From Hoeflea sp. (lineage in GTDB: Bacteria > Pseudomonadota > Alphaproteobacteria > Rhizobiales > Rhizobiaceae), in assembly GCF_965204935.1 (NCBI RefSeq), contig NZ_CBDBFO010000002.1: a stretch of 64,000 nucleotides of DNA; one strand, given 5' to 3'. The position numbers and the translations under genes are program-made. Below, piece after piece: positions 20,845 to 47,636 of the stretch. Position 1 is the first letter of the stretch. The number at the start of each line of letters is the position of its first letter. The notes under the pieces are model-generated. The model was not told where the DNA came from and did not search any database. It saw nothing but the letters and a program-made list of their open reading frames with translations.

Positions 20845-23139
20845 TTACCCGGCCAGGCGGTGATCCCCGGCCGGTTCCTCGTGATCTGTCTCGGGTTCGG
20901 CCGGCTGATCGCCCGCAAGCCGGAACTCCGACACCACCGCTGAAAGCCCGCCCGCATCGTCCGCAAGCTTGTGGATCACGGCATTGGTCTCTTCGACCAT
21001 GGCGGCATTCTGCTGCGTCATGCGGTCCATCTGCGTTACCGCCGAATTGACTTCCTGGATCCCGGTCAGTTGTTCCTTGGCGGCCGACGCGATCGTTGCG
21101 ATCCGCCCGTTAATGTCGGCAACATGATGGGAAATCTGATCGAGCGCCTCTCCGGTCGCCTTGACAAGGCTGACACCGTTGCTGACCTCGGAGCCCGATT
21201 TGTTGATCAGTTCCTTGATTTCGGTGGCTGCGCCGGCCGCGCGCTGGGCCAGTTCACGCACCTCCTGGGCGACCACGGCAAAACCTTTGCCGGCTTCGCC
21301 GGCCCGCGCCGCCTCGACACCGGCATTGAGCGCCAGAAGATTGGTCTGAAAGGCGATCTCGTCGATCACATTGATGATTTTGGAGATTTCCTCAGAGGCC
21401 TTTTCAATACCCTCCATGGCAGAGACGGCTTCCGACACAACACTGCCGGACCGGTCAGCGTCGTCCTTGGCGGCATTGGCCATTTGCTCGGCTTCGGCGG
21501 CGCGCTCCGAGGTTTCTCGGACGGTCGAGGTGATTTCCTCGAGCGCGGCCGATGTTTCCTCCAGCGAGGCAGCCTGCTGTTCGGTGCGCCGCGACAGATC
21601 GTCCGCCGACGCGCGCATTTCCCGCGCGTTGCCGTCGATCGATCCGGAATTGTCCTGGATGCGGTAAAGCGTCGAATTGAGCTTTTCGACCGTCGCGTTG
21701 AAATCGACACGCAGGCGGTCGAGACTGTCCATGAAGGGTTCGTCCAGCCGCACCGAAAGATCGCCTTCCGACAAACGCGTCAGCCCGCCCGCCAGCGCAT
21801 CGACGGCCGCCTGCATCCGGCCGGCTTCTTCTGCCTTGGCCGAGGCCCGCTCCTGCGCCTCGCGCTCGGTGGTCTCACGGGTTTGCTCCGCCTCGTTTTG
21901 AAGCTGCTCCTTTTCGATCGCCGCCTCCTTGAACACGGCGACCGATCGGACCATGTCGCCGATCTCGTCCTTGCGCTCCGTGTCGCCGATGTCGAAATCG
22001 GTTTGCCCTTCGCTGAGCTGGCGCATATTGGCAACCAGCGCGTTGATCGGGCGTGTCAGGTTGCGTGAAAACAACAGTGCGCTGCCGAGGGCAACCGCAA
22101 GCAGCACGAGAGAAACGACGATGACGATCTGCCGCATCGACGCAACCGCCTGTCCGGCTTCCCGACTGTCGACGAGCGCTGCGACCACCCAGCCTGCATT
22201 GAGGAAGTCGACACGCGCGAAGGCAACCGTTGCATGCATGTCGCGGTAATTGTCCGTGTTCCCGGTGACGATCTCCCGCGCCTCCAGCGTCCGGAACTGT
22301 TCCGGATCAAGCCGCGCATTGCCGACGTCATTGGCTTCGGTCAAAGTAGAATTGGTCAGAAGAAAACCGTCGGAACGCAACAGCACCGTCTCGCCGGTCT
22401 CGCCGAGACCGGTCCGGTTGTTCATGATCGCTTCGATCTTGCCGGTCGGCAACGCCACGACAAAGGCACCCTTGACCTCGTCGGCGACGATCACCGGCTT
22501 TGCGACAAATGCCGTCAGCGGCCGGCTACCGGTTGCATAGGGTCCGTAATCCAGAAATGTCACACCCGGCGAATCGCCCATCGCGATCGCCTTTTCGAAT
22601 ATCCGCGCCAGCGCGGTGCCTTTCCAGGCGTCATCGTTGATGTTAACATTGAAGTCGTCATTCTTGAGCAGCGTGAAGACGACCCGCCCGTCGGTATTGA
22701 TGAGGAAGATGTCCTCGAAATCATTTTCCTGCGCGATTTTGTCGAAAACCGGCCCGAACTTGCCTTCGTGGTTGAGATAGACGCGCGCGCCGCTCGGCGT
22801 GCTCTGGTCCACCTTCTCCTCATGGCTGAGCGCCTGGTCGGTGACCAGCGTCAGGAATGCGTCCTCCATGCCCTCATTGACCATCGTCAGCCCGATGCCG
22901 AACAGGTTGAGGGCCGCGGCGACATTCGGTGTCACTGCGATCTCCTCGATGTCCTTCTTGGTCGACTCCAGATAGGTCTCGATCTGATTGCGGCGGCCGT
23001 CCGCAATCGCCGACAGTTTCTCATCATATTCCCGGGTAAGGGCGTTGGAGCTGATCATCAGGCCGCCAATGCTTGAGGCGGCAATCGAGACAACGGTTAA
23101 AATGGCGGCTGCCAGCGGCAGTTTCCTTGAGATGAGCAT
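20845..23139 (-). CDS. Methyl-accepting chemotaxis protein with a periplasmic Cache-like sensor and a HAMP domain
   Basis: Two TM segments. Highly conserved signalling hairpin [40 protein letters not shown]. Confidence 0.9.
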
Positions 23140-23452: not shown

Positions 23453-23866
23453 ATGGATTCTTTTTTTATTTCAATTGTTTATTTGCTACCGCTGGCTGTA
23501 GCGTTTGCCCTATCTTATCGTTGCGTTAGCATCCTCGCGCGACGTTTGCTGGTCTTTTCGACGCTCTACTTCGCGGCGGTTCTTATCCTCGCATTCTATT
23601 TCGAGGATCAATGCACCGGGAGCCTTTTGAAAGGACTGGATTATTGTTCAGGTGGCAAAACACAGCTGGCGCTAGGCAATTGGATTGCAGGGCCATTGTT
23701 TATTTCGTTGGCGGTCCTCTATCCCATTTTTGGGCCAATTATCTTGGCTTGGGCGATTTCAGTGGAGTGGAAAGCCCGGCGGCTAAAACCCGTTCTATTT
23801 AAGTACGCGTTTATTCCACTCACAATCCTATTGGATGTCGTCGTGATATCGATGATGTTTCGCTGA
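23453..23866 (+). CDS. Hypothetical integral membrane protein in a low-GC islet
   Basis: 137 aa with about 4 hydrophobic helices and no recognisable motif. Start chosen at the first ATG (MDSFFISIVY); the track start at 23420 is TTG. Confidence 0.4.
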   Translation: MDSFFISIVYLLPLAVAFALSYRCVSILARRLLVFSTLYFAAVLILAFYFEDQCTGSLLKGLDYCSGGKTQLALGNWIAGPLFISLAVLYPIFGPIILAWAISVEWKARRLKPVLFKYAFIPLTILLDVVVISMMFR

Positions 23867-23945
23867 ACTTTGTTTGTCCTCAAAGAGATGCGCAATAATC
23901 CATTTAGCGTTATCATTGGGAATGGCCGTTGAAGGCGATACCAAG

Positions 23946-24605
23946 ATGTGGCCGAAACAGGACATCGATCCCGGTGTCCTGGGTGCCCTTGCGCATCTGT
24001 ATCGCGGGGAAGTTTACCGCAGCACCCATTGGCGCAACAGGCTCGACAACACCACCAACTGGGCGGTGGTGACGACGGGAATTGCCCTTTCGGCGACCTT
24101 CAGCAACGTCAACGCATCGCCGCTGCCGATGATTCTCGTCGGGTTCCTGGTCACCTTCTTCCTGGCTTTCGAAGCCCGCCGCTACCGCTACTACAACCTT
24201 TTCCGCGCCCGCGCCCGCCTGCTTGAGTCCGACTTTTACGCACCGATGCTCAATGGTGAAAAGGTTCGCCTGGATGCCGACTGGGGAGCCATGCTCGCCG
24301 ACGACTACCGCACGCCGCACTATCACATCAGCTTCATCCGGGCCGCCGGGCGGCGGCTGCGCAACAATTATTCATGGATTCTCGCCATCCAGGCCGCCGC
24401 CTACTACGGAAAACTGGCTATCCACCCTGTTCCGCTTTCGAGCATGTCCGATTTCATCGAGCGGGCGGCGATCGGGCCGATCCCCGGCCAGTATGTCATA
24501 GCCGCCGGCATTCTGTTCCACGGCAGTTGGTTCGTCTTTGCCTTTGTGACGCTGCGGCTCGATCAGCTTTACCGGCGCAAACGCCAGTCGCCAATGGAAC
24601 ATTAG
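23946..24605 (+). CDS. DUF2270-like integral membrane protein
   Basis: The HLYRGEVYRSTHWRNRLDNTTNWAVVTTG motif is recalled as characteristic of DUF2270. An alternative start exists at 23922. Confidence 0.6.
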   Translation: MWPKQDIDPGVLGALAHLYRGEVYRSTHWRNRLDNTTNWAVVTTGIALSATFSNVNASPLPMILVGFLVTFFLAFEARRYRYYNLFRARARLLESDFYAPMLNGEKVRLDADWGAMLADDYRTPHYHISFIRAAGRRLRNNYSWILAIQAAAYYGKLAIHPVPLSSMSDFIERAAIGPIPGQYVIAAGILFHGSWFVFAFVTLRLDQLYRRKRQSPMEH

Positions 24606-24748: not shown

Positions 24749-24894
24749 GAATTGCAAGACCATGAATTTTGGCGGGGAATTTTTGCCCTAGGCGCGAATT
24801 CCGGATTCCCCGACTGTCGCATGCGTATATTTGGAAGAAATCCGAAAATGTGCTTGCGTGAAATGCTGATGCGGGGGCGCGAGCATTGCATTTG

Positions 24895-27786
24895 ATGGCG
24901 TATCCAGAACGCAGCGTCGTGACGGTATTGGTCGTCGACGCTGTGAGCTCCACGAGCCGGATAGCCTCTGTCGATCCCGATGATTCACAACTCATGGTAG
25001 ATGACGTGCTCTCCCACATTCGCCAGTGTGTGGAGCGGGCGGGCGGCCTTTTGGTCAGCTTTGCGGGCGATGGCGGTGTTGCCGTTTTCGGCTGGCCGGA
25101 CTCGCTTGAAGATCACGCGGACAGGGCTTGCGAGGCTGCCTGGAACATTCAGCACTACGGCGGCGGCGACAGCCCCATTCTCGACCCGGAGAAGAACGAG
25201 GTCCTGTTTCGGGTCGGAATCCATTCCGGGCTCGTTGGATTGCGTCACCTCGAACTGGAGCGCGGCTCGCAGGTCGATCTTGTCGGCGGAACCGTTCACC
25301 TGGCCGCGCGCCTGGAGAAAAGCGCCCAGCCGGGCGAGATTTTGTTGAGCGCGGAGACCTTGGAACTGTGCCAACTGGCGGTCGAGCACAGTCCAAGGCC
25401 AGACCTCCAGATCCTCTCGGAGATCAATTCCAGCGTCTTTTGCCTGAGCGCACCGCCCAAACGGCATGCCACGAACGAGGCGATACAGGATTATGATTTT
25501 CCGATCGTCGGCCGCGACCAGGAACAGGCCATGCTGCGGGACGCATTGGCCCGTGTATCGCCGTCCAAGATCGCCTTCGCCATTGTCGGCGAGCCGGGCA
25601 TCGGCAAGAGCCGCCTCGCCGCTGCCGCCATCGAAGAGGCGCTGACGGAAGGCACCATCGACCGGCTCTTGGTTTATCGCGGTGATATTCAAAGGCGCAC
25701 CACGCCCTTTGCCGTTTTCAGGAGCCTCATACTCGACGCCCTTGACCTCGACGAGCAGGCGACGCAATCGCAAATCGAGGCCGCATTTTCAGACGCCGGC
25801 CTCGAGTCCACGGGCAACGGGGCTCTGGACGCGATCCTGATGTCCGACGGCCAGGGACGTTCAACGCGGACCGCGCCGAAGCTTTCCCTGAAACAGACAG
25901 CACAGGCACTGGTCGAGATTTTCGCGCGTCTGGCGTTGAAGGACCGCACCCTTTTGCTGCTCGAGGATCTACATCTGGTTGATCCGGAGAGCCAGCTGTG
26001 CCTGGAACTGCTTTGCGAAAACGACGATGACCGGCGGCTGATCCTGCTTTTGACGGGGCGTCCGGAAGCGGCATTCGACGCACAGCAGATTGCCGACACG
26101 GTGCTGCGCCTTGAACCGATGACGCGCGACCAGATGCGGGCACTGGCCCTCAAGCTGTGGACAAAGAACACCCCGGACAAACTCAACATCGAGAAGGCGC
26201 TGGACCAGGCTGACGGGATTCCCTTCGTGCTCGAACAGTGGGCCTGTTCGCTGGATCCGCAGGAGGCAGAGACATTCTCGTCGATACCGCAGGGTGTGCA
26301 GTCGATGAACCATGCGCGCCTTAACCGCCTGCCGCGCGCGGTCAAGCATTGCGCGCAGTCTCTGAGTATTCTGGGCGAGCAGGTCGAGCTGGACTTCGCG
26401 CGCAAGGTGCTTGGCGTGGATATGGAGGACTTGCTGGAGAGTCTCGACCGGCTCGAACAACTCGCCATAACCCGTGTCATGGCCGGACGGTCGGTGCGTT
26501 TCTGCCACGCGATCATCGCTGATGCCTGCCGCAACACCGTACCGCGCGCCCGGCGCCGGGACATACACCGCACCGCCATCGATGTGATCAATCAGACCTA
26601 CGCGGACCTTGGCGGCCAGTACGAGCGCCTGGCTTTTCACGCAGAAGCAGCGGGTGACGACCTGCAGGCACTTGAGTATCTGGTCAAGGCCGCCGACCGC
26701 GCCAAGAGGAACCATGCCGGCAAATCGCTTCAGCTTCTTTTCGACCGGGCCCTGGTATTGATTGACCGTATCGGTGAGCCGGCAGAGGAAATCTTTGTCG
26801 ACCTGACCATCATGGTGTGCACGACGATGCTGCAGCTCGGCGAATTCTCCAAGATGCACAGCCATCTTCCAAAGGTCCTGGCACTGTCTGAAAAGCAGCA
26901 GCGGAAAAGCCAGATCTGCGCCTCCAAGTGCAATCTCGGCATGGTCGACTGGTTCGAGGGACGATACGCAGACGGCATCATGATCGTCGAGGAAGCGCTG
27001 CAGATGGCAAAGGAGATGGACTCCTTGCCGCACATCTTCGCAGCACAACACCTGCTGTCGGTTTTGAACCACGCCATGGGCAACATGGAACAGGCGATGA
27101 CGCTTTCCCGTGATCTGTGTGGCCGGCTGTCCGGCGATCTGCAGGACTCACGGCTGGGCGCAGCCGGCATCCCCGGCGCCATATCGCGGGCCTTTCTGGG
27201 CTGGTTCCTCACCGACATGGGCGAATATGAAGAGAGCCTGGATTACGCGCAAACCGCTCTTGATATCTCACGGGCAAGCAATGATCCCTATACAGAAGTC
27301 ATCGCCCTCAACGCGCTTGGCAGGAATCTGATCATGATGGGTCGCACCGGCGACGCGGTGACCTGTCTTGAAACGACGATGGCGCTGATCGAAGAACACG
27401 GTTACGACGCACCGAAACCGCATATCACCGGTCTCCTGGCAACGGCGCTGACGCGCAGCGGCCGCGCCGCGGAGGCAATCGAGCTCGTCGATGAATGCTT
27501 CCAGAAATCCCTGCATCTGCGCACCGGGAGGCTGGAGATCTATTATCTCTATGCCGGCTATGCGGAGGCGCTCTACCACACGGGTGCCGTCGAGCGATGC
27601 CTACCTGCCATCGATCAGGCCATAGAAATCGGGCGCAGCATCAATAATCCCGGACTGCTCGTCCAGGGCCTCGCCCTGAGAGCCAAGCTGGCGACGGAAA
27701 TCAAGCCTGACAGCCCGCTTGTGCAGCAGGACATCGATGAGCATAGAAACCTGTGCGCAAGGCACGGCTTCAAGGTTCTGGTATAA
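24895..27786 (+). CDS. Class III adenylate/guanylate cyclase domain + AAA/STAND P-loop NTPase + TPR-like C-terminal repeats
   Basis: Cyclase metal ligands occur in VLVVDAVSST and FAGDGG. P-loop GEPGIGKS lies near 25590-25611. The helical repeat C-terminus is about 450 aa. The track start at 24886 is TTG; the first ATG is at 24895. Confidence 0.8.
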   Translation: MAYPERSVVTVLVVDAVSSTSRIASVDPDDSQLMVDDVLSHIRQCVERAGGLLVSFAGDGGVAVFGWPDSLEDHADRACEAAWNIQHYGGGDSPILDPEKNEVLFRVGIHSGLVGLRHLELERGSQVDLVGGTVHLAARLEKSAQPGEILLSAETLELCQLAVEHSPRPDLQILSEINSSVFCLSAPPKRHATNEAIQDYDFPIVGRDQEQAMLRDALARVSPSKIAFAIVGEPGIGKSRLAAAAIEEALTEGTIDRLLVYRGDIQRRTTPFAVFRSLILDALDLDEQATQSQIEAAFSDAGLESTGNGALDAILMSDGQGRSTRTAPKLSLKQTAQALVEIFARLALKDRTLLLLEDLHLVDPESQLCLELLCENDDDRRLILLLTGRPEAAFDAQQIADTVLRLEPMTRDQMRALALKLWTKNTPDKLNIEKALDQADGIPFVLEQWACSLDPQEAETFSSIPQGVQSMNHARLNRLPRAVKHCAQSLSILGEQVELDFARKVLGVDMEDLLESLDRLEQLAITRVMAGRSVRFCHAIIADACRNTVPRARRRDIHRTAIDVINQTYADLGGQYERLAFHAEAAGDDLQALEYLVKAADRAKRNHAGKSLQLLFDRALVLIDRIGEPAEEIFVDLTIMVCTTMLQLGEFSKMHSHLPKVLALSEKQQRKSQICASKCNLGMVDWFEGRYADGIMIVEEALQMAKEMDSLPHIFAAQHLLSVLNHAMGNMEQAMTLSRDLCGRLSGDLQDSRLGAAGIPGAISRAFLGWFLTDMGEYEESLDYAQTALDISRASNDPYTEVIALNALGRNLIMMGRTGDAVTCLETTMALIEEHGYDAPKPHITGLLATALTRSGRAAEAIELVDECFQKSLHLRTGRLEIYYLYAGYAEALYHTGAVERCLPAIDQAIEIGRSINNPGLLVQGLALRAKLATEIKPDSPLVQQDIDEHRNLCARHGFKVLV

Positions 27787-27804: not shown

Positions 27805-30800
27805 CTATCGCGGCCTCAAAAGGTTGAAACGACCCGACAGGCCGGTGGCCGCCTTGGCGATCTCCTGCATCTCGCCGGCCTCACCCGCGACCTTGCGAAG
27901 CCCCTCCAGCCGGCCGGCAGCCAGCAGGCATCGCTCCAGAATGTAAAGTGCGATCGCATCGCGGCCCCAGCAGTGGCGCGCCCTGACGCGCCCTTCAACG
28001 CCCGGACCCGTGTCGTATGAGGCGTTGCCGAAGAGCAGATAGTCGTCAATCTCGCGGATCGGGTGCTCCTGCACAAAGGGGTAAAGCGAGAACCGGTAGG
28101 GATCGTCAAAGACGGCGGCGTCCAGATTGGCTGCGGGGATCAGCGCAGCAACCCATTCGCCGGCATCGAGGCGCCCGCCGCTCTCAAGTTCGGTGGCCTT
28201 GACGCAGCGGCGCATGAGCATGGCGAAATTGGGTTTCAGCCGCTCGGCCTCGTAGATCAGCTGCGTTGCCAGCGAGTATCCGCACTTGTCGGCACTGTCC
28301 GGTTCCAGTCCCTGTTTCCTGACGAGGTCGAACAGGCTCGGCAGGCTGATCCGGAACGTCATCAGCGTGTCCATGATGTTGCCGAAGGTGGACGGAATGG
28401 CCGCCATGGTCGATGCGATAAGCTCAAACAGGATGGCCGCCACGTCGGCATGGTACTGGGCGCTCGTATAGCCTTTGTACTCGCGCAGCTTCTGCTCCTC
28501 GACGGCGATAAAGGCGTCGAGCAGCGTGCGTGTCCTTGCCGGCCGGACCGACCAGGCATCACTGATGAGCCGGTTAAGGTGGTTCAGCAGTTCCGCTCCC
28601 GCCTGCTCTGACAGGTTCATCAGCGTCTTGTAGGACAGGACATTTCCGAACACGTCGCCAAGCGTCAGGATGGACCAGATCTGCATGGTTGCGAGGCCCG
28701 GGTCCCTGGGCATCTTGCCCTTTGAGACGCTCAGCCAGTCCGGATGGAGGTGCCCGACATGCTGGCGCGCGAACGGCAGCGCTATCCCAAGCTCGGTAAT
28801 CCATGCCGGGCCGGGTGTTCCGAAGAGATCCGACAGGACCGCGTAGGAAACATCGCTCGCCAGATCGCGAACCAGATCGATCCGGTGGCTGTCGCCGGTG
28901 CGTGCCAAAGCCATCTCGATGCGGTTCGACACGATATCGCCAAGACGGCTGTGCACGCCGCCGCCGCCCCTGTCGTCACGATGGGCCGCATCCAGCGCTT
29001 GCCAGGCATCGCCCAGGATCGAATAGAGCCGGGTGCGGCGCTCCCTGCTTGCAGCCGGAAACTGCGCCGTTCCAATCAGCATGTCATCGCCGCGCAGCAC
29101 ACGTCGTCCGGACAGGCTGTAGTGATCGACGGAGAACTGTTCCTGGCCTTGCTTGTCGACCAGCCTGAGGATGTCGGCGACATCGCGGTGCCTTCCGACA
29201 AAGCAGACAGGGCTGTCCAGCCCGTCCGGCTCGTGCAGCGTCGCGCCGTCATTATAGGGCGAACTGCCGGGAATATCCGGCAGTTTGGCCCGGATCAGCG
29301 ACACGTTCTTGTCCCTCAGGAAGCGGCCGACAAATCCGCGGATGCGTTTTTCGGTAAAAAGACCCGGCGTTTGCGGATCGGTCATGCTGTGTCCGTTCGC
29401 CAAGAGCTCGGACGTGTCGAGCTCGAACCGCTCATGCAGCGCCATGGCTTCGATCGCGTCCTGGCTGGGCGCGAAGAAATAGTCGCCGCCCCGCGTGATC
29501 ACGAAGCGCGGTATCCGGCTGACCGGCACCGCAGCGCCCGATTCAAGGAACCGGTCCCCGGTTTCACCCGTATTGGAGCCGGCGATCGGACAGCGGTTGA
29601 GGCCTGCCTGCCCCATGAACTCGCCGCCATTCATCCAGTCGGCCTGTATCACCTCGAACTGCAGGTCGATACGGGCATTGGCGGCAATGAAAAGCAGCCC
29701 GCGTTTTTTGCCGTCGCCACGCGAACTGTCGTCAAGAAGCGGGCCGCCATAACCGATGCCGCGGCGTAGCAAGCGATGGCGGCGCACATCATTGCGGCCA
29801 CCGATGTCACGCGGGTTGGTGCGGCGCACGTGTGAGCCGAGCGGGCACTTCGTTCCTTTCGGGTCGTCCCGCACGAAAAGGAAATCGTTGATCTTGCGAT
29901 CGCTTTCCGGCCCGATTGCTCGCGGTCCGTCCGGCGACAGGACCAGTGGCGTTCCGTTCTTCCAGCGCCCCATGAACTGCGCCGCCAGCTTCTCCTGCGC
30001 CCTTTCATCGTCCGGCCGCTGCTGCGCCAGGAAATCCCGGAAACCGACGACGTCCTGCTCCAGCTTTCTGAAGATGATGAAGGTCGCGCCGTCGCGCAGC
30101 AGCTTGTTGGCCGGCTGCCGGGCATGATTGCCGTCCTCGTCCGGAAATCCCAGATAGATTTCCCCGGGCGCCACCGGTGTCCATGTGCCGTTGGGCCCCG
30201 GCATTGCGCCGCCGGGCATCGGTTTTCCGAGTTTCATATCGACAAAGGGCTGGCTGATTCCGTCCCGGAACCCGAAATGCTCTTTCCTGTATCCGGATGT
30301 GACGGCTTTGCCGTCCTCGACCGAATAGGGATCCTGGCCAAGTTCGATATGCACGATTTCCATCCCCAAGAAGCGGAACAGGCCGCCGAGCATGGTGCGC
30401 AGTGCCTTTCCACGCGCGCCGTTGCGGTTGTTGAAATCATCGATATCGCGGCGCAACGCGTCCCAGCTGGCCTCCGGCCCCATGTCCCATTTCCCGTCGC
30501 CGATGACATCGCCGACCTGGAAACCGCCGGTGAAGTAGCCGTGCACTGAGCTCAGACCCAGCTCGCCGTCCCAGTTCTCCGGTGCGCTCGGGCCGTCATC
30601 GCCGAGCCGTTTCGCACGCGCCGCCATGCCCTGTTTGAACACATCCGGAAACGAGCGCAGCGTGTTCGCATCGACATCCAGTTTTTCCAGTCCGGGAAAC
30701 GTGAAGGCGACATTCACGGGCACCGGATCGAAGCTCTGCTTCTTTCGCTCGGCGCCGTATCCGTCCGCCTGCGCCCGCTCATTGCGCAAGGGCGATGCAC

Positions 30801-31590
30801 CGGCAGCGGAAGCGGCATCGCGCGCCAGTTTGGCCTGCCGCAACAATTCGTATGCGCAAAGCGCGACCAGCCGGTGAGAAACCACCTGGACACCGGCCTG
30901 CCCCGGATCGTCACCGAACGCGCTCAGGTCGAAAATACTGGCGACCGCCTTGCGGATTTTCGGATCGCGGCTCTTGAGGAACATGGCAAGGGCCAGGATC
31001 AGCGCCACGAGATCGCGTTCGTTTTCAAGGCCGCGGCTGAATGTCTTCTGTGCCCATTCAATGGCGCCGAAAACGCCACCGCCTTTTTTCAAGGCCGCCG
31101 AAAGCGTTTCAACAAGTTTGAGGATCTTGGGGCTTGGCGGTTTGTTGCCGCCGACCGCCAAAAAGCCGTCCAGCTGCTTGAGAAGCGCGCCGTGATCGCC
31201 TGTCGACAACAACTTCAGCCATGCCCGGAACGCGTCGCAGGCAAGGTTCTCGGCCAGCGGGTTTGCCGATGCTGACGTTTCGTCGGTTCCGTTTTCTTCA
31301 GTATCAGCCGCCGCGGATCGCGCGAGATGCGGCGATGCGAGCTCCGTTGCGTAGTCTGTCGTGCCGGACGTTTTCTTCTTCGGCGCGCTGGATGACAAAG
31401 CTTCCTTCGCCAGCTTTGCAAAGAGCAGCCGCGACGATTCCATCTCCGTCTTGCTCAAGATGCGGAAGAAGACGAACAGTGACCAGTTGCGGGTTTTGCC
31501 ATTGGCAAATTTCGACGGCTGGCCGAGATGCGCCTGGATTCTTGCGGCGGTGTCGGCGAGTTTGCTGTCGTCCATGATCCTATCGGACAT
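27805..31590 (-). CDS. Large fusion protein: DyP-type haem peroxidase domain (with a long N-terminal insertion) + C-terminal cytochrome-P450-like domain
   Basis: DyP motifs: NWSLFVFFRI, VNVAFTFPGL, FGFRDGISQP (Asp codon 30262-30264), PLGSHVRRTNPR (His codon 29830-29832), LLRRGIGYG and LLFIAANA..QFE.IQ. P450 motifs: YEAERL (ExxR, 28240-28251), DDPYRFS, and a Cys loop ...RARHCWGRD (Cys codon 27970-27972). GAGGAGG lies upstream of the ATG at 31590. Confidence 0.7.
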   Translation of the reverse strand: MSDRIMDDSKLADTAARIQAHLGQPSKFANGKTRNWSLFVFFRILSKTEMESSRLLFAKLAKEALSSSAPKKKTSGTTDYATELASPHLARSAAADTEENGTDETSASANPLAENLACDAFRAWLKLLSTGDHGALLKQLDGFLAVGGNKPPSPKILKLVETLSAALKKGGGVFGAIEWAQKTFSRGLENERDLVALILALAMFLKSRDPKIRKAVASIFDLSAFGDDPGQAGVQVVSHRLVALCAYELLRQAKLARDAASAAGASPLRNERAQADGYGAERKKQSFDPVPVNVAFTFPGLEKLDVDANTLRSFPDVFKQGMAARAKRLGDDGPSAPENWDGELGLSSVHGYFTGGFQVGDVIGDGKWDMGPEASWDALRRDIDDFNNRNGARGKALRTMLGGLFRFLGMEIVHIELGQDPYSVEDGKAVTSGYRKEHFGFRDGISQPFVDMKLGKPMPGGAMPGPNGTWTPVAPGEIYLGFPDEDGNHARQPANKLLRDGATFIIFRKLEQDVVGFRDFLAQQRPDDERAQEKLAAQFMGRWKNGTPLVLSPDGPRAIGPESDRKINDFLFVRDDPKGTKCPLGSHVRRTNPRDIGGRNDVRRHRLLRRGIGYGGPLLDDSSRGDGKKRGLLFIAANARIDLQFEVIQADWMNGGEFMGQAGLNRCPIAGSNTGETGDRFLESGAAVPVSRIPRFVITRGGDYFFAPSQDAIEAMALHERFELDTSELLANGHSMTDPQTPGLFTEKRIRGFVGRFLRDKNVSLIRAKLPDIPGSSPYNDGATLHEPDGLDSPVCFVGRHRDVADILRLVDKQGQEQFSVDHYSLSGRRVLRGDDMLIGTAQFPAASRERRTRLYSILGDAWQALDAAHRDDRGGGGVHSRLGDIVSNRIEMALARTGDSHRIDLVRDLASDVSYAVLSDLFGTPGPAWITELGIALPFARQHVGHLHPDWLSVSKGKMPRDPGLATMQIWSILTLGDVFGNVLSYKTLMNLSEQAGAELLNHLNRLISDAWSVRPARTRTLLDAFIAVEEQKLREYKGYTSAQYHADVAAILFELIASTMAAIPSTFGNIMDTLMTFRISLPSLFDLVRKQGLEPDSADKCGYSLATQLIYEAERLKPNFAMLMRRCVKATELESGGRLDAGEWVAALIPAANLDAAVFDDPYRFSLYPFVQEHPIREIDDYLLFGNASYDTGPGVEGRVRARHCWGRDAIALYILERCLLAAGRLEGLRKVAGEAGEMQEIAKAATGLSGRFNLLRPR

Positions 31591-31592
31591 TC

Positions 31593-32426
31593 TCAAACCT
31601 CCTCGTCGCTTTTCATGCGGTAGGTTCCGCCAGGGGTCGGGAAATCCGACGCGTATTGACCGGTCTCGCGCAGAAACTCGTCAAAGAGTTCATCCATGTT
31701 TTCCACCTTCCGGCCGGTCGGCGAACGCACCTTCTCCACGAAAGCGTCAAAGCAAAGCTTGAAGTCCTCGAGCTGTTTGATGCGCGCGACCGTTAGATCC
31801 GGATAGGCGCACAGGAACAGATCGACCGGCACCTGGTAGCGGCGGATCCACTGCCAGAACTTTTCAAAGTCCCGGGTCGAGGGAAAATCGACGCAATTGA
31901 CGAAGACGTCATCGAAATCGCGCGCCAGGAATTGCGCGATGTCCCTGAAATAGACCTTCAGGTCGCCGTCGAACGAGACGATCGTCAGCAGCCAGGAATG
32001 GAAACCGGGTGCCGGGGCAGCGGCGGCATTGCCCGTTGCGCCGGCATCAACCGGATTGCTGTCCGCGCCGACCACGCTGATCTCGAATTCGTCCATCGGC
32101 CTGGGGATGCTGAATTGGCCCTGCGGCCCCGGTGATGAACCGCCGGAATCATAATAGGCGACGTCGCTTGCGCTGGAATTTGTCAGATATTGCTCCGGTC
32201 GGATGATCATCATGCGTCCGAAATGAATGCTGGAGATCGTGTTCAGCTGATGCGGAATTCCCCGGTCCGCGCGGTTCGCGATCGATTCGATCACACGCCG
32301 AAGTTTTTCCTCGTAGGTCAGTCTCTCGCCGGGTGCGCGACCCAGGATGATGGGCGCCATGACGGCAATCTCGGTAACGCCGCCCATGGTCGCGGACATC
32401 GACCAGTTCAACAGCTCGCGTTCCAT
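31593..32426 (-). CDS. Hypothetical protein (277 aa) tightly coupled to the DyP-P450 gene
   Basis: GGGGAGA lies upstream of the ATG at 32426 (MERELLNW...). The stop is 2 nt before the downstream ATG, and the RBS of the next gene lies inside its last codons. No recognised catalytic motif. Conserved-looking stretches: SIHFGRMMII and WLLTIVSFDGDLKVYFRDIAQFL. Confidence 0.6.
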   Translation of the reverse strand: MERELLNWSMSATMGGVTEIAVMAPIILGRAPGERLTYEEKLRRVIESIANRADRGIPHQLNTISSIHFGRMMIIRPEQYLTNSSASDVAYYDSGGSSPGPQGQFSIPRPMDEFEISVVGADSNPVDAGATGNAAAAPAPGFHSWLLTIVSFDGDLKVYFRDIAQFLARDFDDVFVNCVDFPSTRDFEKFWQWIRRYQVPVDLFLCAYPDLTVARIKQLEDFKLCFDAFVEKVRSPTGRKVENMDELFDEFLRETGQYASDFPTPGGTYRMKSDEEV

Positions 32427-32515: not shown

Positions 32516-34174
32516 TTATTCGTTCGTTATACTCTGAAAGGTCTCCGTCAAAGCCGCAAGTGCGGGATCGCCCGACAATCGCACCGCCCGCACAAGCGGT
32601 CCCGAAACGGCAATTCTCCGGCTCTCTCCGTGACCCGTTGTGCCGCTCCACTGCGCCCGGATATGGGCAAGCCGCAATGCGAGATTGGCAATCTCCGGGC
32701 CGAACCGCGACCAGTCGAAGGTTTCATCGGACGGCTTGAGCTGAGTCGCCTCATAAACAAGGCGCTTGATGTCGGCATGGCCGCTCGCCGGCTGATTTTC
32801 GTCCTCGCAGCTATCCGGGATTTCGGCCGGGTTGAGACGCAGCAGCGCCTCGGCATCAATGATACCTGCGCCCATGCGGCCTTTGTTCCAGCCGGTCGGA
32901 ACCCGCGCCGTGTGGCTAATCGCGCTGCGGAACAGTTCCTGCAGCGGCATGCCGCGTCGTTTGGCTTCGGCGATCAGGTTGTCGCGGCCGTGCCGGTTGA
33001 GCCAGAGCGCTGCAATGCCCGAAACCAGGGCCGCTGAATAGGATGTGCCCTGTCCTTCCGCGATGGTTGGCCGGCTGCCGTCGCGGACGTCGTGCTTGGC
33101 GCGCCACACCATCTCAGCCGGTGCGGCGATGTCGACCGTCGATCCGGCGCAACTGCCACGCCACTTGCGGTCGTTGACATTGGTTCCGCCGACCGCGATC
33201 ACTTCGCTGTAACGGGCGGGATAGACGGCAAGACCGATACAGTTTCCGGCGGCGGCGACGACGATGAGGTTGGCATCGACCGCTCTCTGGATCGCCTTGC
33301 GCAGAGCCTCGCTTCCAAGGCCGCCAAGGCTCATCGATATGATGTGACATCCCGAAAGCCGGGCATGGTTGACGGCGCGTGCAATGGGCGCCGGGTTCAC
33401 GACGCGCACATCGTGGACACAGCGAATGGGGACGAGATGCGCCCCGGGTGCTGCGCCGCTGATTTCGCCCGACCGGCGACCGATCGTCACACTGGCAATG
33501 CCGCTCCCATGGCCAGGGCTGGCGGTCTCGGGATCCAGCGGGTCCGTCGGATCGCCATCGCCTTCGAGAATATTCGCCGCGAGGTCCAGCCGCAGGCTGT
33601 CTGTTTCGATTTCGTCATGATCGGCAATGCCCGTATCCGGCTGGGCGATGAAGACGCCCTTGCCCCGGTCCGGCGACAAATGCCACGCCGCCATGACGCG
33701 GGTGTTTTCGAGCGCCCATTTCTTGTCGGCGGGTGCTGGTCCGTTGACCCAGCAAAGGCTGCCCGCGACCGCGGCGCTCTCGGATGTGGCTTCGGGCGGC
33801 TCAGGCACGGTCATGATGTGCTCGCCGATACACGGCTCGCACGACACCAGGTCCAGCTTGTCACGCAACTCATAGGCGATCGCGAACAAAGCATCCGATG
33901 CACGCCCGGTCGGAACTCCGGGAAATCGCAGGACGACGAAATGCGCCAGTTCGTCGGCACAGCGCGGAAAGAGCGGCTCGAGCGCAAAATCGAGCGTATC
34001 AAGGACGCCGGCGACTTCCCTGCGCGCCAGGCTGAAGTCGGGTCTTGCCCGATACTGAAGGACAAAGCCCAGTTCATCGGCAGGCAGCGCGTTGCGATAG
34101 GGTTCGCTGATCGCGATGTTGCGGCTGACCTCTGGTCTGACCAACAGGTGGTTGAGTGTCCTAATCGGCGTCAT
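32516..34174 (-). CDS. S8-family (subtilisin-like) serine peptidase with no signal peptide and with N- and C-terminal extensions
   Basis: Catalytic triad contexts QPDTGI (Asp), PGHGSGIASV (His) and GTSYSAALVSG (Ser). Oxyanion Asn in VVAAAGN. About 170 aa precede the catalytic domain and about 130 aa follow it. Confidence 0.85.
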   Translation of the reverse strand: MTPIRTLNHLLVRPEVSRNIAISEPYRNALPADELGFVLQYRARPDFSLARREVAGVLDTLDFALEPLFPRCADELAHFVVLRFPGVPTGRASDALFAIAYELRDKLDLVSCEPCIGEHIMTVPEPPEATSESAAVAGSLCWVNGPAPADKKWALENTRVMAAWHLSPDRGKGVFIAQPDTGIADHDEIETDSLRLDLAANILEGDGDPTDPLDPETASPGHGSGIASVTIGRRSGEISGAAPGAHLVPIRCVHDVRVVNPAPIARAVNHARLSGCHIISMSLGGLGSEALRKAIQRAVDANLIVVAAAGNCIGLAVYPARYSEVIAVGGTNVNDRKWRGSCAGSTVDIAAPAEMVWRAKHDVRDGSRPTIAEGQGTSYSAALVSGIAALWLNRHGRDNLIAEAKRRGMPLQELFRSAISHTARVPTGWNKGRMGAGIIDAEALLRLNPAEIPDSCEDENQPASGHADIKRLVYEATQLKPSDETFDWSRFGPEIANLALRLAHIRAQWSGTTGHGESRRIAVSGPLVRAVRLSGDPALAALTETFQSITNE

Positions 34175-34272
34175 CAAAGCTTCCGGCTACCTGTCTTTTG
34201 TACATTCGGGCCGGCCTTTGGCAGGGACCGGCGCCAACAGGTCGAGCTATTGCATAACCGGGCAAGCGCAGA

Positions 34273-34288
34273 TGTGAGATAACTCACA
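34273..34288. promoter_or_regulatory. Perfect CRP-type box TGTGA-GATAAC-TCACA in the divergent promoter region between the S8 operon and the crp-like gene
   Basis: The palindrome extends to aTGTGAG-ATAA-CTCACAt (34272-34289). Two further TCACA half-sites lie at 34290-34294 and 34299-34303. Confidence 0.55.
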
Positions 34289-34402
34289 TTCACACGGATC
34301 ACATACGCAGGGTTGCAATTGTGTCAGCTGCAGAAAAACTTGCTGCAAGCCCCATATAATGGCGCTAGTCTTAACGCAGTGATTGGCCCAGGGGTGGGGT
34401 TG

Positions 34403-35095
34403 ATGAAGTCGGGCGCGAAAAATCTGTTGTATCTTGTCGATCTGCTGGCGGATCTCGAGGTCGGCCAACTGAACGACATTGGCGAGACCTGTGAGTGGAT
34501 CCGCGTCTCGAAGGGCCAGGAGGTCATCAGCCAGAATCAGCAGACAACCGACGCCTATTTTATCGTCGAGGGCAGCGTCGCCGCCAAGGGCTACTCCGTC
34601 GACGGCAAGGAAGTTACCTACGCAGAGATTTCGGCCGGCCAGGTTTTCGGCGAATTCTCGGCGATCGACAAGCGGCCCCGATCGGCCGCCGTGGAGGCGC
34701 TTGAGGACAGCTACCTCGCCCGAATGGACTCCGACCAGTTTCGCGCCCTGATCGCGGACTACCCGGTCCTTGGTTTGAAGCTCGCCGAACTTCTGGTTCG
34801 CAAGAACCGGAGCCTGACGGACCGGATGTTCGAATACAGCACCATGGCGGTTCACCAGCGCATCTGCACGGAGCTGTTGCGCATGGTCGACGCCAGCGAT
34901 GGCGGCGATACGTTCCTTATCGAGCCGGCGCCGTCGCACTACCAGATCGCAACGAAGCTCAGCACACACCGCGAAGCGGTCAGCAAGGAACTGGCGCGGC
35001 TGTCGAAGCTCGGCATTGTCAATTCCGGCCGCCGCAAGATCGAAGTGCTCGACGTCGAGCGACTGCGCCAGCTGGCGCAATCGGGCATCTACTAG
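34403..35095 (+). CDS. Crp/Fnr-family transcriptional regulator (cNMP-binding domain + HTH)
   Basis: cNMP-binding signature GQVFGEFSAIDKRPRSAAVEA. C-terminal HTH YQIATKLSTHREAVSKELARLSKLGIV. Start chosen at the ATG at 34403 (MKSGAKNLLY); the track start at 34313 is TTG. Confidence 0.85.
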   Translation: MKSGAKNLLYLVDLLADLEVGQLNDIGETCEWIRVSKGQEVISQNQQTTDAYFIVEGSVAAKGYSVDGKEVTYAEISAGQVFGEFSAIDKRPRSAAVEALEDSYLARMDSDQFRALIADYPVLGLKLAELLVRKNRSLTDRMFEYSTMAVHQRICTELLRMVDASDGGDTFLIEPAPSHYQIATKLSTHREAVSKELARLSKLGIVNSGRRKIEVLDVERLRQLAQSGIY

Positions 35096-35569
35096 AGCAG
35101 AATTGCATCCCTGATTATCGCATCCGGCGGAGCCGCAATGACTAAAACTCTGCCGTTTGTGGGATTCCCCACATCCTGAACACCGGATATCGGACAATCT
35201 CGACCTGCATCGTGATGGGGGGATTCCGGACCGTTATCTCAGCCTGTCTTGCGGGCCCAAACGCAAGCGGCGGATAGCGGTCTGGAGACCTGATGCCCAT
35301 GCCGGGTTCCGCCCACCCGCGACCCGCGTTAGTCGACTCCCAAGCTCCCCTGTCCCTGCGATACTCCAGTCTTGCACGGACAGGGGCCGCCTGGCGTGCC
35401 GGCAATAGCTAATCCGGCGCGCCGGGCGGGTTCAATAGAGGCCGGGTCACTTCAAGTATTGCGCCGGAATCCGGCAAACAATATTTCTTCATCAAGGAAC
35501 AAACCGCCACAATTGCGCTATAGTTTCCCAAAAGGTGTCAAACGAGACTCTTTCCCAAGGAGCGTATTG

Positions 35570-45091: not shown

Positions 45092-46009
45092 CTACTCCCG
45101 ATCCAGGCCGCCATCGGCTGCGGCATCGATGATCTGCTCGCGCATCCATTTCTGCATGGCGGAGCGGTGCGTGCGCATGGTCCAGAACATGTCGACCTCG
45201 AGCGATACCTCGAACGGCAGGGGGCGGCGCACGATCCGGTTGGAAAACTTCTCGGCCAGCCGGTTCGGTGCCGTCGCGATCAGGTCTGTATCGGCGATGC
45301 AGTTTTCCAGATCGCCATATTCGGTCAGTTCGAAAACCTTGTCGATGGATCCGCCCCGCGCATCGAGCGCATCGAGATAAAATGGCCGCCAGTTTCCCAT
45401 ATAGGTGACGACCACATGTTTGGCCGACTGATAGGACTCGAAGTCGAAAGCCCCGGAAGCCAGAGGGTTGTTCCGGTCCATGATGCAGACATAGTGATCC
45501 ATGCCGATCTTGCGCTTGTAGAGCTGCTCGCCGGAAATCTGTACCGGGCCCAGCAATATGTCGCACTCGCCGCGCTTGAGCTGTTCCTCGCCGACGGCGG
45601 ATGAACTCAGCACCCGCATGTTGATGCCCGGTGAAAGCCGCCGCATGCGGCCGATAAGATGCGGCAGGATCGTGACCCTTTCCCAGTGGTTGCAAGAGAG
45701 TGTGACCAACCCGCGAGCGGTCGCGGGATCGAATGTCTGGCGTCGCGCCACACCTTGAAACTCCTCGAGGAACTTTGCCGCATGCTCAACAATCACCCGG
45801 CACCTGTCCGTCGCCGCGACGCCGTTTCCCTCGCGCACGAAGAGCGGGTCGTCAAACACCTTTCGCAACCTTGCGATCGTGTAGCTGACGGTTGACTGGT
45901 TCTGCCCGAGCCGATGCGCCGCCTTGGAGAAGGAACCGAATTCATGGACATATTGCAGGGTCCGAAGTGCCGCGAAATCGACTTTGAGGATGTCGCGTTG
46001 ATCCATCAT
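45092..46009 (-). CDS. LysR-family transcriptional regulator
   Basis: HTH LRTLQYVHEFGSFSKAAHRLGQNQSTVSYTIARLR. Divergent from the P450 gene. Confidence 0.85.
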   Translation of the reverse strand: MMDQRDILKVDFAALRTLQYVHEFGSFSKAAHRLGQNQSTVSYTIARLRKVFDDPLFVREGNGVAATDRCRVIVEHAAKFLEEFQGVARRQTFDPATARGLVTLSCNHWERVTILPHLIGRMRRLSPGINMRVLSSSAVGEEQLKRGECDILLGPVQISGEQLYKRKIGMDHYVCIMDRNNPLASGAFDFESYQSAKHVVVTYMGNWRPFYLDALDARGGSIDKVFELTEYGDLENCIADTDLIATAPNRLAEKFSNRIVRRPLPFEVSLEVDMFWTMRTHRSAMQKWMREQIIDAAADGGLDRE

Positions 46010-46131: not shown

Positions 46132-47313
46132 ATGGCCGCGCCCGTTCCCGTCATGGATGACATCTCGATTGCCACGCTGACGGCGGATCCCTATCCGAGC
46201 TTTCGCCGCATGCGCGAGGCGGCCTCGGTCGTCTGGGTCAGCGATGCACGCATCAATCTCGTCACCCGGTTCGAGGACATCATGACCGTCGAGCGCGACC
46301 ACGGGCGCTTTGCCTCGACCAATCCCGGCTCCCTGATGAACAAGGTCATGGGCCACTCACTGATGCGCAAGGATGACGAGGCGCACCAGGTGGAGCGCAA
46401 GGCGATCGAACCGTCCTTCAGGCCCGGGGTCGTCAAGAACCATTGGACACCGGTTTTCGACCGGATCGCCGATCAATTGATCGACAGCTTCGCGGATGAT
46501 GGCGAAGCGGATCTGTTCGACCGTTTCGCCGCGCCGATGGCCTCGCTTTGCCTCTGCGAGATGATCGGCTTCAAGGACGTCGCCTGGCAGGACCTCGCCG
46601 CCTGGTCACAGGCGCTGATGGATGGCGTCAGCAATTATGGCACCGATCCGCAGACCGCGCACCGGGCCGCCGCCGCGTCGGACGCCATAGACGCAGCCAT
46701 CGACGCGGTGCTCGACGATTACCGGGACAAGCCGGAGGCGACCATCCTGTCGTCAATGCTGCATGCCGAAAGCCCCCATTCGCTGGAACAGATACGCGCC
46801 AATATCAAGGTCATCATCGGCGGCGGCCTCAACGAACCGCGCGACTCCATTCTGACCACCGTCTACGGACTTCTGCTCAACCCGGAACAGCGCGCCCGCG
46901 TCGAGGCCGATCCGACGCTTTACCGCACGGCCTTCGAGGAGGCCGTGCGCTGGGTGTCGCCCATCGGCATGTATCCGCGCCGCGTCACCTGTGACACGGT
47001 GCTCGGCGACACGCAGCTCAAGGAGGGCGATCAGCTCGGTATCTGCGTCGGCGCGGCCAACCGGGACGAGACCCGGTTTTCCGATCCGGACGCCTACGAC
47101 ATATTCCGCGAACGCAGCTCGCATCTCGGATTTGGTGCCGGGCCGCACTTTTGCGCCGGGACCTGGGTGGCGCGCCAGATGGTCGGCGAGATTGCGGTTC
47201 CGAAGCTGTTTAGCCGGCTGTCAAAGCTGCGCCTTGACGACAACAGGCCGGCGATCATGAAGGGCTGGGTGTTTCGCGGGCCGGTCTCCCTGCCGGTACG
47301 CTGGGAGATCTGA
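46132..47313 (+). CDS. Cytochrome P450
   Basis: Canonical haem loop FGAGPHFCAG, EEAVRW (ExxR) and a bacterial class I size of 393 aa. Confidence 0.9.
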   Translation: MAAPVPVMDDISIATLTADPYPSFRRMREAASVVWVSDARINLVTRFEDIMTVERDHGRFASTNPGSLMNKVMGHSLMRKDDEAHQVERKAIEPSFRPGVVKNHWTPVFDRIADQLIDSFADDGEADLFDRFAAPMASLCLCEMIGFKDVAWQDLAAWSQALMDGVSNYGTDPQTAHRAAAASDAIDAAIDAVLDDYRDKPEATILSSMLHAESPHSLEQIRANIKVIIGGGLNEPRDSILTTVYGLLLNPEQRARVEADPTLYRTAFEEAVRWVSPIGMYPRRVTCDTVLGDTQLKEGDQLGICVGAANRDETRFSDPDAYDIFRERSSHLGFGAGPHFCAGTWVARQMVGEIAVPKLFSRLSKLRLDDNRPAIMKGWVFRGPVSLPVRWEI

Positions 47314-47315
47314 AA

Positions 47316-47636
47316 TTGGTCAAAGTTACCTTTGTGCAGCCCGATGGCAGCCGCCTCGAGGTCGAGGCGGAGCCTGGGCAGTCGATCATGCAGACCGCCC
47401 TTTCGCACAATGTCGTCGGCATAACCGCCGAATGCAACGGATCGGCCGCCTGCGCCACGTGCCACGCCTATTTCGATGAGGCCAGCCTGAATGGTCTCGA
47501 AAAAATGCAGGAGCACGAGAACGACATGCTGGATTTTGCGGCCAGCGAACGCCGCTCCGGAAGCCGCCTGAGCTGCCAGGTCAAGGTCACCGAAGCACTC
47601 GACGGGATTGTCGTGACGTTGCCGGAAATGCAGTAG
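47316..47636 (+). CDS. 2Fe-2S ferredoxin, adrenodoxin/putidaredoxin type
   Basis: C-x5-C-x2-C ... C pattern (ECNGSAACATCH ... SCQ). TTG start 2 nt after the P450 stop with GGGAGA upstream. Confidence 0.85.
   Translation: MVKVTFVQPDGSRLEVEAEPGQSIMQTALSHNVVGITAECNGSAACATCHAYFDEASLNGLEKMQEHENDMLDFAASERRSGSRLSCQVKVTEALDGIVVTLPEMQ

Follow-up and report, generated by a model that had tools for sequence, protein, structure and literature searches.

Two kinds of described enzyme bear on the gene considered here, which lies on a 64,000-nucleotide stretch of a Hoeflea sp. genome (contig NZ_CBDBFO010000002.1; "the window" below) and joins a DyP-type peroxidase to a divergent cytochrome P450 in a single reading frame. 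The first kind comprises the class V DyPs, such as the Deinococcus radiodurans enzyme DrDyP (structures 8RE2 and 8RE3; PMC10820274), Amycolatopsis DyP2 (4G2C), AnaPX (5C2I) and the fungal enzymes AauDyP and BadDyP. The DyPs characterised so far include no fusion, and the physiological substrates and roles of these peroxidases are a long-standing open question (PMC10820274). The second kind comprises the DOX-CYP fusions of fungi and oomycetes (PpoA, the 7,8- and 5,8-linoleate diol synthases, 8R/9S-DOX-AOS, EAS and CYP5619), which have been called "diheme proteins" and whose "self-sufficient CYP" partners need no reductase and lack the usual proton-relay residues (PMC13049297, PMC5919972).

The Hoeflea protein follows the same plan as the DOX-CYP fusions, with a peroxidase-type haem domain at its N-terminus and a putatively Cys-ligated P450 at its C-terminus, but the parts are different. 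The N-terminal domain of the DOX-CYPs belongs to the peroxidase-cyclooxygenase superfamily, whereas that of the fusion belongs to the DyP (dimeric alpha+beta barrel) superfamily, and Pfam gave no match to An_peroxidase, the animal-haem-peroxidase or cyclooxygenase (COX)-like domain, in the N-terminal half. The DOX-CYP P450s come from eukaryotic families unrelated to the bacterial lineage seen here, and the DOX-CYPs convert C18 fatty acids to established products. An initial annotation of the window, made from its letters only, had stated that it knew of no described equivalent of this architecture. That holds for the pairing of DyP with P450, in that we found no published characterisation of a natural fusion of this kind in the searchable literature, but it has to be qualified, as automated labels of the type "EfeB/cytochrome P450" and the DOX-CYP analogues do exist. 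We regard the fusion as a new, uncharacterised variant made from two known kinds of haem enzyme.

The fusion gene (27805..31590, minus strand) encodes 1261 amino acids from an ATG at 31590 to a stop codon at 27805-27807; counted from a TTG, the frame is open over 27805..31596. A GGAGG Shine-Dalgarno sequence (31598-31602) lies 7 nt 5′ of the ATG. The TGA of the gene upstream, whose product we call ACC, occupies 31593-31595, and because only two bases separate it from the fusion ATG, the two genes are likely to be translationally coupled. Inspection of the fusion's N-terminus revealed neither a hydrophobic nor a twin-arginine signal. Full-length homologues of 1150-1330 residues number at least 286; they come from Hoeflea, Nitratireductor, Mesorhizobium, Bradyrhizobium, Reyranella, Phenylobacterium, Caulobacter and Pseudahrensia and from many metagenomes of soil and water, with more distant fusions in Hyphomicrobiaceae, Rhodospirillaceae and Nitrospira. 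Their database entries read "hypothetical protein" or "Dyp-type peroxidase family", and JGI has "deferrochelatase/peroxidase EfeB/cytochrome P450". The recurrence of the same architecture in more than 100 independent assemblies bears out the initial proposal that a DyP and a P450 domain bearing a Cys ligand are parts of one polypeptide. The fusion is thus a member of an old, widespread, uncharacterised protein family without a recognisable signal peptide, and its members are predicted to hold two haems.

The N-terminal half is, to judge from sequence comparison, a class V (C/D-type) DyP with a complete catalytic set. Its catalytic core (residues 292-716; 29443..30717, on the minus strand like all parts of the fusion gene given below) matches Pfam DyP_N with 36 bits against a cut-off of 27.5, Dyp_perox_C below the cut-off of that family, and TIGR01413 at 3e-21, below the trusted cut-off. 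The best sequence match in the PDB is the D. radiodurans enzyme 8RE3/8RE2 (E = 5e-48, over residues 294-352 and 437-714); an ancestral D-type DyP, 7anv, fungal D-type DyPs, DyP2 and AnaPX also match (E values from 5e-48 to 1e-20), and the A-type EfeB reaches only 7e-5. The class V enzymes align with residues 292-716 over the whole core.

All of the motifs listed in the initial annotation were found at the residues given for them: in the DyP half, FVFFRI (39-44), VNVAFTFPGL (292-301), FGFRDG (439-444), GSHVRRTNPR (585-594), RRGIGYG (609-615) and LLFIAANA (632-639), and in the P450 half, LIASTMAAIPST in the I-helix region (1057-1068), YEAERL (1113-1118), DDPYRFS (1162-1168) and RARHCWGRD (1203-1211). 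Its codon coordinates for His587 and Cys1207 were also correct. Conservation was counted in a MAFFT alignment of 120 homologues, to which all such counts below refer unless another set is named. The distal catalytic aspartate of the GxxDG motif, Asp443 (30262..30264), is invariant (120/120) within an equally invariant EHFGFRDG, as are the proximal haem ligand His587 (29830..29832; 120/120), the RRxNPRD sequence beside it and both residues of the Arg609-Arg610 pair (29761..29766; 120/120), which contains the distal arginine of the DyP pocket. The segment around His587 pairs with GSHIRRMNPR of 8re3.

Compared with the characterised class V DyPs, the fusion has an insert of 247 residues after strand beta-1 and a C-terminal extension of 545 residues that includes the P450, and it lacks a signal peptide. 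The N-terminal segment that leads up to and includes beta-1 (FVFFRI) covers residues 1-44 (31459..31590); it was assigned by motif position and by a consensus, VQAHL...WSLFFFFRIL, that is kept across the fusions and corresponds to DIQGNI...FF.I, with which standalone and Nitrospira DyPs begin. The alignment then places the insert between beta-1 and beta-2, at residues 45-291 (30718..31458). The gap between FVFFRI and VNVAFTFPGL is 247 residues here and about 35 in standalone relatives. The insert is rich in Ala, Leu and Lys, has no Pfam or PDB match, and is poorly conserved (0.22-0.39, as against 0.7-0.83 for the DyP core). Its length ranges from 183 to 488 residues in the close family (median 225), apart from one outlier of 19; it is missing from the Nitrospira fusions and short in those of Hyphomicrobiaceae and Rhodospirillaceae. 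We take it to be a derived, clade-specific feature.

Divergent as it is, the C-terminal half is a genuine P450, with Cys ligation predicted from a conserved cysteine. The window protein itself reaches only 17.1 bits with Pfam p450, for which the cut-off is 22.8; seven of the eight relatives scanned pass that threshold, with 34-57 bits, and a profile built from 15 diverse members of the family retrieved 675 P450 chains from the PDB, the best of them CYP125MRCA at 1.2e-33. AlphaFold2 (AF2) predicts a confident model for this half (predicted local distance difference test score, pLDDT, 86.6; predicted template modelling score 0.88), and Foldseek matched the model to 1631 PDB entries at E<=1e-3, the best 50 of the 1631 all being P450s. 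The top match is CalO2 (2.6e-13), and CYP134A1, P450BioI and CYP116B46 are also found, with template modelling scores of about 0.7 for the target at only 13-19% identity. The P450 can be placed at about residues 746-1261 (27808..29355). Its K-helix ExxR, formed by E1114 and R1117 (28240..28251), is invariant (120/120 for both), and so is the putative thiolate ligand Cys1207 (27970..27972; 120/120) in the sequence R-x-C-W-G-R-D, whose counterpart is invariant in 15 distant relatives as well. Around the cysteine, the Trp at +1 is kept in 118 homologues, the Gly at +2 in 119 and the Arg at -2 (Arg1205) in 113; Phe1187-Gly1188 are also highly conserved. The two-haem proposal hinged on His587 and Cys1207, and every one of the 120 homologues has retained both.

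This P450 domain forms a small isolated lineage, because a phmmer search with residues 716-1261 against 1.84 billion representative proteins returned only 151 clusters, and because the profile made from the C-terminal part of the family recognises all 135 of the sequences fetched from them. The full-length matches are mostly proteins of 1000-1360 residues that align through their C-terminal part. Two apparently standalone P450-like proteins (P0124 and P0189) lie on contigs of 1.7-2.3 kb, which makes them uninformative on whether unfused forms exist. We also considered and rejected a relationship to the P450-derived glycosyltransferase activators: TIGR04515 gives 36 bits against a cut-off of 343 and covers only residues 1106-1169, and TIGR04515 proteins lack the Cys ligand that is invariant here.

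As noted initially, the I-helix is without the usual acid-alcohol (E/D-T) pair. The segment S1060-T-M-A1063-A1064-I aligns with A-G-N-E-T-T (AGNETT) of CYP125MRCA and with G-G-I-E-T of the relative P0207, which places A1063-A1064 (28399..28404) opposite E-T. Across the close family the first of these positions holds A, V, S or T and the second a gap, V, A or N; nonpolar A or V is seen at these positions, and asparagine in only 14 of the 120 homologues. Along with the loss of the pair, an insertion in the Cys loop had initially been likened to peroxide-using P450s such as CYP74 (plant allene oxide synthase and hydroperoxide lyase), in which the Cys loop is lengthened. Phe1187 does sit 20 residues ahead of Cys1207, as had been counted. 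However, the Phe-to-Cys spacing is 9 in 69 homologues and 10 in 24, with the others ranging from 7 to 30, and spacings of 19-22 are confined to the Hoeflea/Nitratireductor clade (P0001-P0007). The 11 additional residues (1191-1201; 27988..28020) fall in columns where, from one to the next, between 73 and 113 of the 120 homologues have a gap, and have pLDDT values of 52-60 in the model. Basal fusions and relatives have canonical loops such as FGYGPHACRG, FGHDGHECMG and FGRGPHACYG, and basal members show the canonical spacing of 7. In these alignments the insertion is a lineage-specific embellishment and, for that reason, is not evidence for CYP74-like chemistry.

Set beside other P450s, the domain shows both likenesses and differences. 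CYP74, CYP8A1 and CYP5A1 are independent of reductases, act on hydroperoxides or peroxides and have altered distal residues in the I-helix (PMC13049297), and the I-helix of the fusion is altered too; nevertheless, a conserved I-helix Asn is lacking, the long loop is clade-specific and of low confidence, and no specific sequence relationship to CYP74, CYP8A or CYP5A was seen among the best 60 PDB sequence matches or the top 50 fold matches. In the CYP152 peroxygenases, Arg-Pro replaces the acid-alcohol pair, whereas the fusion has Ala-Ala at those positions. With the class-I bacterial P450s (CYP125, CYP107, CYP134A1, P450BioI and CalO2) it has in common the fold, the ExxR motif and the F, G, R/H and C of the Cys pocket, but its sequence identity to them is low (13-19%), it has lost the acid-alcohol pair, and it has the CWGRD motif, a fused DyP and no ferredoxin partner.

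The initial view of the locus had missed its conserved partners, namely ACC, a cyclase-STAND-TPR gene and a Crp-family regulator with a matching box. ACC is an unannotated protein of 277 residues (31593..32426, minus strand), recognised through its orthologues and an AF2 model. In all 13 of the fusion loci retrieved, an orthologue 52-56% identical to it is encoded directly upstream of the fusion. A jackhmmer search over all open reading frames (ORFs) found an ACC-like ORF in 79 of 82 class-V DyP loci, the three others being contigs of 2-4.5 kb. Standalone bacterial class V DyPs in our sample resemble the fusions in this respect: an ACC-like gene of about 190 codons, with the motifs IHxAR and FDGxWxxY, lies upstream of them in Actinobacteria, Chloroflexi, Acidobacteria, Myxococcota and others (loci L015-L082; for example, L022 6104-6694 and L025 5060-5608). 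Conserved motifs of ACC itself are IHxAR and FDGxxxxY. Among the best 120 of 512 and the best 120 of 841 homologues, none has a Pfam family or a name beyond "hypothetical protein", and none of the papers we found mentions such a partner. The ACC-like protein looks like a general, undescribed partner of DyPs.

The AF2 model of ACC has a pLDDT of 70 and contains a beta-alpha-beta...beta-alpha core, and it is on this order of elements that we describe the core as ferredoxin-like. Foldseek found no significant match to it in the PDB (best E = 0.5), with weak ABM/DABB-like matches only. The idea that ACC might be a DyP half-domain was discarded, as hhalign of ACC against a DyP profile gave a probability of 1.3%.

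Related loci link the same components in other arrangements. A giant permuted fusion of 1727 residues, P0236, is encoded on a 128-kb contig (L084 7001-12449) and consists of a P450-like domain (47-452), an ACC-like segment (501-584), a hydrophobic region (about 720-1110), a second ACC-like segment (1167-1291; conditional E 5.5e-24) and a DyP that starts at about residue 1400. Its hydrophobic stretch of about 390 residues can be read as a multi-pass transmembrane region. The last DyP strands are found in the next ORF, of 86 codons, and the split probably reflects a frameshift or a sequencing error. In L083 the components are unfused, in the order STAND-TPR homologue (E = 2e-26), P450-like gene and ACC-like gene; the first runs into the start of the second, and the second overlaps the third. 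Two Nitrospira genomes (L062 3345-11511; L036 5079-13286) have operons of, in order, an alpha/beta-hydrolase with the motif GHSLG, an ACC-like protein, a DyP-P450 fusion, a FadL/TodX transporter (3e-37) and a GAF-histidine kinase.

In two further variants another protein stands with the ACC-DyP pair. Eleven loci from Streptomyces, Kitasatospora and Nonomuraea (L022 8219-9343; also L018, L029, L031, L037, L043, L047, L049, L051, L054 and L057) encode a 374-residue protein, named "catalase family protein" by NCBI, that takes the place held by the P450 domain in the fusion; it is directly downstream and co-directional in ten of them, and in L037 it is encoded on the other strand at a distance of 1.3 kb. 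By inspection it contains the motifs RDAHAKGYG and R...VY..S...R. In the third operon variant, seen in one actinobacterial locus, a 377-residue DUF4331 protein is encoded between the ACC-like gene and the DyP gene (L025 5646-6779). In many other loci about 1.1-1.2 kb separates the DyP from the ACC-like match upstream, a gap that would fit a layout of the DUF4331 type. This recurrent swap of the P450 for a mini-catalase or a DUF4331 protein in related operons is a further lead.

Downstream of the fusion, and ending 18 bp from its stop codon, is a gene for a 966-residue protein with a class-III cyclase domain, an AAA_16 (STAND) ATPase and TPRs (24886..27786, plus strand; assigned from Pfam domains). 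All 11 of the alphaproteobacterial loci that could be assessed have such a gene beside the fusion, as does the window (12/12); it is convergent with the fusion in ten loci and co-directional in L010. The orthologues are 42-47% identical in ten loci, and L011 has a 26% identical cyclase-AAA_16-TPR homologue. The same architecture of class-III cyclase, AAA_16 and TPR_MalT is known from the Rv0386 class of mycobacterial cyclase-ATPase-TPR proteins and MalT-like STAND regulators. Unlike those, the neighbour lacks a LuxR helix-turn-helix, its cyclase has His in place of Asn and no conserved Arg, and the gene goes together with the DyP-P450 cassette. We infer that the components are functionally coupled, because ACC is encoded next to the DyP, because P0236 fuses ACC-like segments with both enzymes, because L083 keeps the STAND-TPR, P450-like and ACC-like genes in order, and because the cyclase-STAND-TPR gene is adjacent in 12 of 12 cases.

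On the other side of the operon, and divergent from it, is a gene for a Crp-family regulator (34313..35095, plus strand; Pfam cNMP_binding 2e-19 and HTH_Crp_2 2e-13), with homologues in L003, L004, L008 and L010. The 135-bp divergent intergenic region holds a perfect CRP-type box, TGTGAGATAACTCACA (34273..34288), with arms of 5 nt, found by eye and by a pattern search; it is the sole match in the 64 kb, where 0.07 would be expected. A perfect box is present at the same position in Hoeflea sp. TYP-13 (L004 4285-4300), and L003, L005 and L006 each have a box with one mismatch upstream of the operon. A promoter and terminator scan gave nothing informative around the operon.

From these features we tentatively favour, at what we would call a little short of an even chance, a peroxide-driven, reductase-independent two-haem enzyme with ACC and sensor partners. 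Such an enzyme would use H2O2 or an organic hydroperoxide, with no reductase: the DyP haem would carry out one-electron (radical) oxidation, while the P450 haem would act on the same substrate or intermediate as a self-sufficient peroxygenase or peroxide-rearranging catalyst. The substrate would be hydrophobic and probably lipid-derived, a suggestion prompted by the lipase-like and FadL genes of Nitrospira, the hydrophobic region of P0236 and the catalase-labelled protein that replaces the P450 in the 11 Streptomyces-type loci. ACC might help the DyP as a carrier of substrate or cofactor or as a "dirigent"-type partner, and the STAND-TPR protein may sense the substrate or product. In the present clade, the signal could pass from the sensor through a cyclic nucleotide to the Crp-like regulator and so to the operon. 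Independence from a reductase is argued by the replacement of the acid-alcohol pair together with the finding that, as the initial annotation had said of this operon, none of the 16 fusion loci inspected shows a ferredoxin or reductase in the conserved cassette. It is also argued by what is seen at the distal I-helix position of self-sufficient CYPs with O-O bond-cleaving activity, which is Asn or, as in TXS and 8S/9S-AOS, a nonpolar residue (PMC13049297).

A number of observations weigh against this picture. The basal Nitrospira fusions keep G-V-V-E-T and a canonical Cys loop, so the loss of the acid-alcohol pair is derived. The peroxide-only chemistry put forward initially would be a derived trait at best, and the ancestral P450 may have been a monooxygenase of the ordinary, O2-dependent kind. 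Some reductase-dependent P450s have lost the pair too. The nearest neighbours of the domain in both sequence and structure are ordinary class-I bacterial P450s, and CYP74, CYP152 and CYP8A are absent from the best 60 sequence matches and top 50 fold matches. As to the substrate, the Nitrospira hydrolase matches Lipase_3 at E = 0.0048, below the Pfam cut-off, and FadL-family proteins carry aromatic hydrocarbons as well; the catalase label of the 374-residue protein was unconfirmed, with no Pfam, NCBIfam or PDB sequence match. As to regulation, CRP-like boxes lie upstream in only five of 14 loci, and although the cyclase domain keeps both metal-binding Asp residues, its transition-state Asn is replaced by His, its substrate Lys by Val or Ser, and its Arg varies as R/A/K/A among four orthologues, so that the domain may be non-canonical or inactive. 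Lastly, DrDyP, the closest solved DyP, is inactive at neutral pH (PMC10820274).

Several of these points would suit a conventional monooxygenase that uses O2 and NAD(P)H with ferredoxin and reductase supplied in trans, while the DyP removes H2O2 from uncoupling or couples or polymerises a hydroxylated phenolic product. The family descends from class-I bacterial P450s, and not only the Nitrospira fusions but also the relatives P0207 and P0225 keep G-x-x-E-T and the canonical FGxGxHxCxG. A candidate redox partner is even at hand: 16 kb from the fusion, the window encodes an ordinary P450 of 393 residues with a canonical FGAGPHFCAG loop (46132..47313, plus strand), followed directly by an adrenodoxin-type 2Fe-2S ferredoxin (47316..47636, plus strand). 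It is possible that this ferredoxin acts in trans, but it goes with the P450 beside it, under a divergent LysR regulator (45092..46009, minus strand), and the pair provides an internal contrast to the partner-less fusion. In the clade at hand, small or hydrophobic residues have replaced both acid and alcohol in the 120 homologues, and the 16 loci inspected show no redox partner. On balance we consider the conventional scheme unlikely, though it deserves to be kept in mind.

The sensor genes raise another alternative, that the fusion is mainly a signalling device, in which the haem or haems sense peroxide, a gas or redox state, or make an oxidised messenger that is read out by the STAND-cyclase or GAF-kinase, with bulk catalysis secondary. 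A sensor gene is always adjacent (cyclase-STAND-TPR in Alphaproteobacteria, GAF-histidine kinase in Nitrospira and STAND-TPR in L083), and the Crp-family regulator and its box point the same way. An inducible catabolic or detoxifying operon would equally have sensors next to it, however, and the full set of DyP catalytic residues is invariant while the catalytic residues of the cyclase are degenerate. We therefore think it rather improbable that signalling is the chief role.

A bolder version of the peroxide-driven enzyme can be drawn from the DOX-CYP parallel, namely that bacteria have put together, from different parts, an equivalent of the COX/DOX-CYP oxylipin machinery of eukaryotes. The DyP, with ACC, would peroxidise a membrane-derived lipid through a protein or haem radical, the P450 would isomerise the hydroperoxide, and the product would be the ligand of the STAND-TPR protein; in Streptomyces, the mini-catalase, acting like the coral-type allene oxide synthase cAOS, might perform the isomerisation step. 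Ligand-induced oligomerisation of the STAND-TPR protein could then switch on the cyclase, with the Crp-type regulator acting on the operon in turn. We offer this as a speculation with a slim chance of being right. If it were, the class V DyPs would gain a function of their own and a partner protein that always goes with them. In any case, the locus offers experimental leads on the physiological role of class V DyPs, in ACC, the dedicated sensors and the lipase-like and FadL genes of Nitrospira, and a di-haem enzyme that joins DyP and P450 in nature, probably without need of a reductase, would be attractive for biocatalysis. Among prokaryotes it would also be the first analogue of the fungal DOX-CYPs, built on an unrelated peroxidase superfamily.

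Upstream of ACC, the window operon includes a gene for an S8 subtilase without a recognisable signal peptide (32516..34177, minus strand; Pfam Peptidase_S8 1e-30), and this protease could be taken to process the precursor of a peptide or aromatic natural product for which the fusion would be the tailoring enzyme, catalysing oxidative cross-linking. The Foldseek neighbours include the cross-linking enzymes P450Blt and RufO, along with CYP134A1, and the fusion has a weak match to TIGR04538. Those structural matches reflect the generic P450 fold at 13-19% identity, though, and the subtilase is clade-specific, being found only in L003, L004, L010 and the window, all marine Rhizobiales-type loci (4 of 14 alphaproteobacterial loci). 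The conserved cassette has no precursor, nonribosomal peptide synthetase, polyketide synthase or cyclodipeptide synthase genes, and a conserved substrate gene is missing from most genomes, making a tailoring role very hard to credit. That the fusion is an artefact, either a decaying pseudogene or a pair of genes that a sequencing error has run together, has nothing in its favour except the weak Pfam scores of the window protein and is refuted by the same uninterrupted architecture in proteins found by the hundred in independent genomes and metagenomes, by the strong conservation of the catalytic residues and by the confident AF2 model.

A few observations concern the surroundings. PADLOC matched neither the fusion nor ACC to a known anti-phage defence system, and its matches among the neighbours were generic ones to TPR, cyclase and subtilase. 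A 316-codon ORF on the minus strand (34247..35197) is an antisense shadow of the Crp-family gene and has no Pfam match in that frame; such antisense ORFs of high GC content are common across the window. Adjoining the same gene is an ORF of 805 codons (35372-37789, plus strand) with no Pfam or PADLOC match and no homologue in the related loci fetched. Rfam found no RNA family anywhere in the window, including the segment at 23000-24000, where the GC content dips to 0.49 from about 0.62 elsewhere. This dip coincides with a 735-bp intergenic region between a chemoreceptor gene (20845..23139, minus strand) and a gene for a DUF2270 membrane protein (23874..24605, plus strand).

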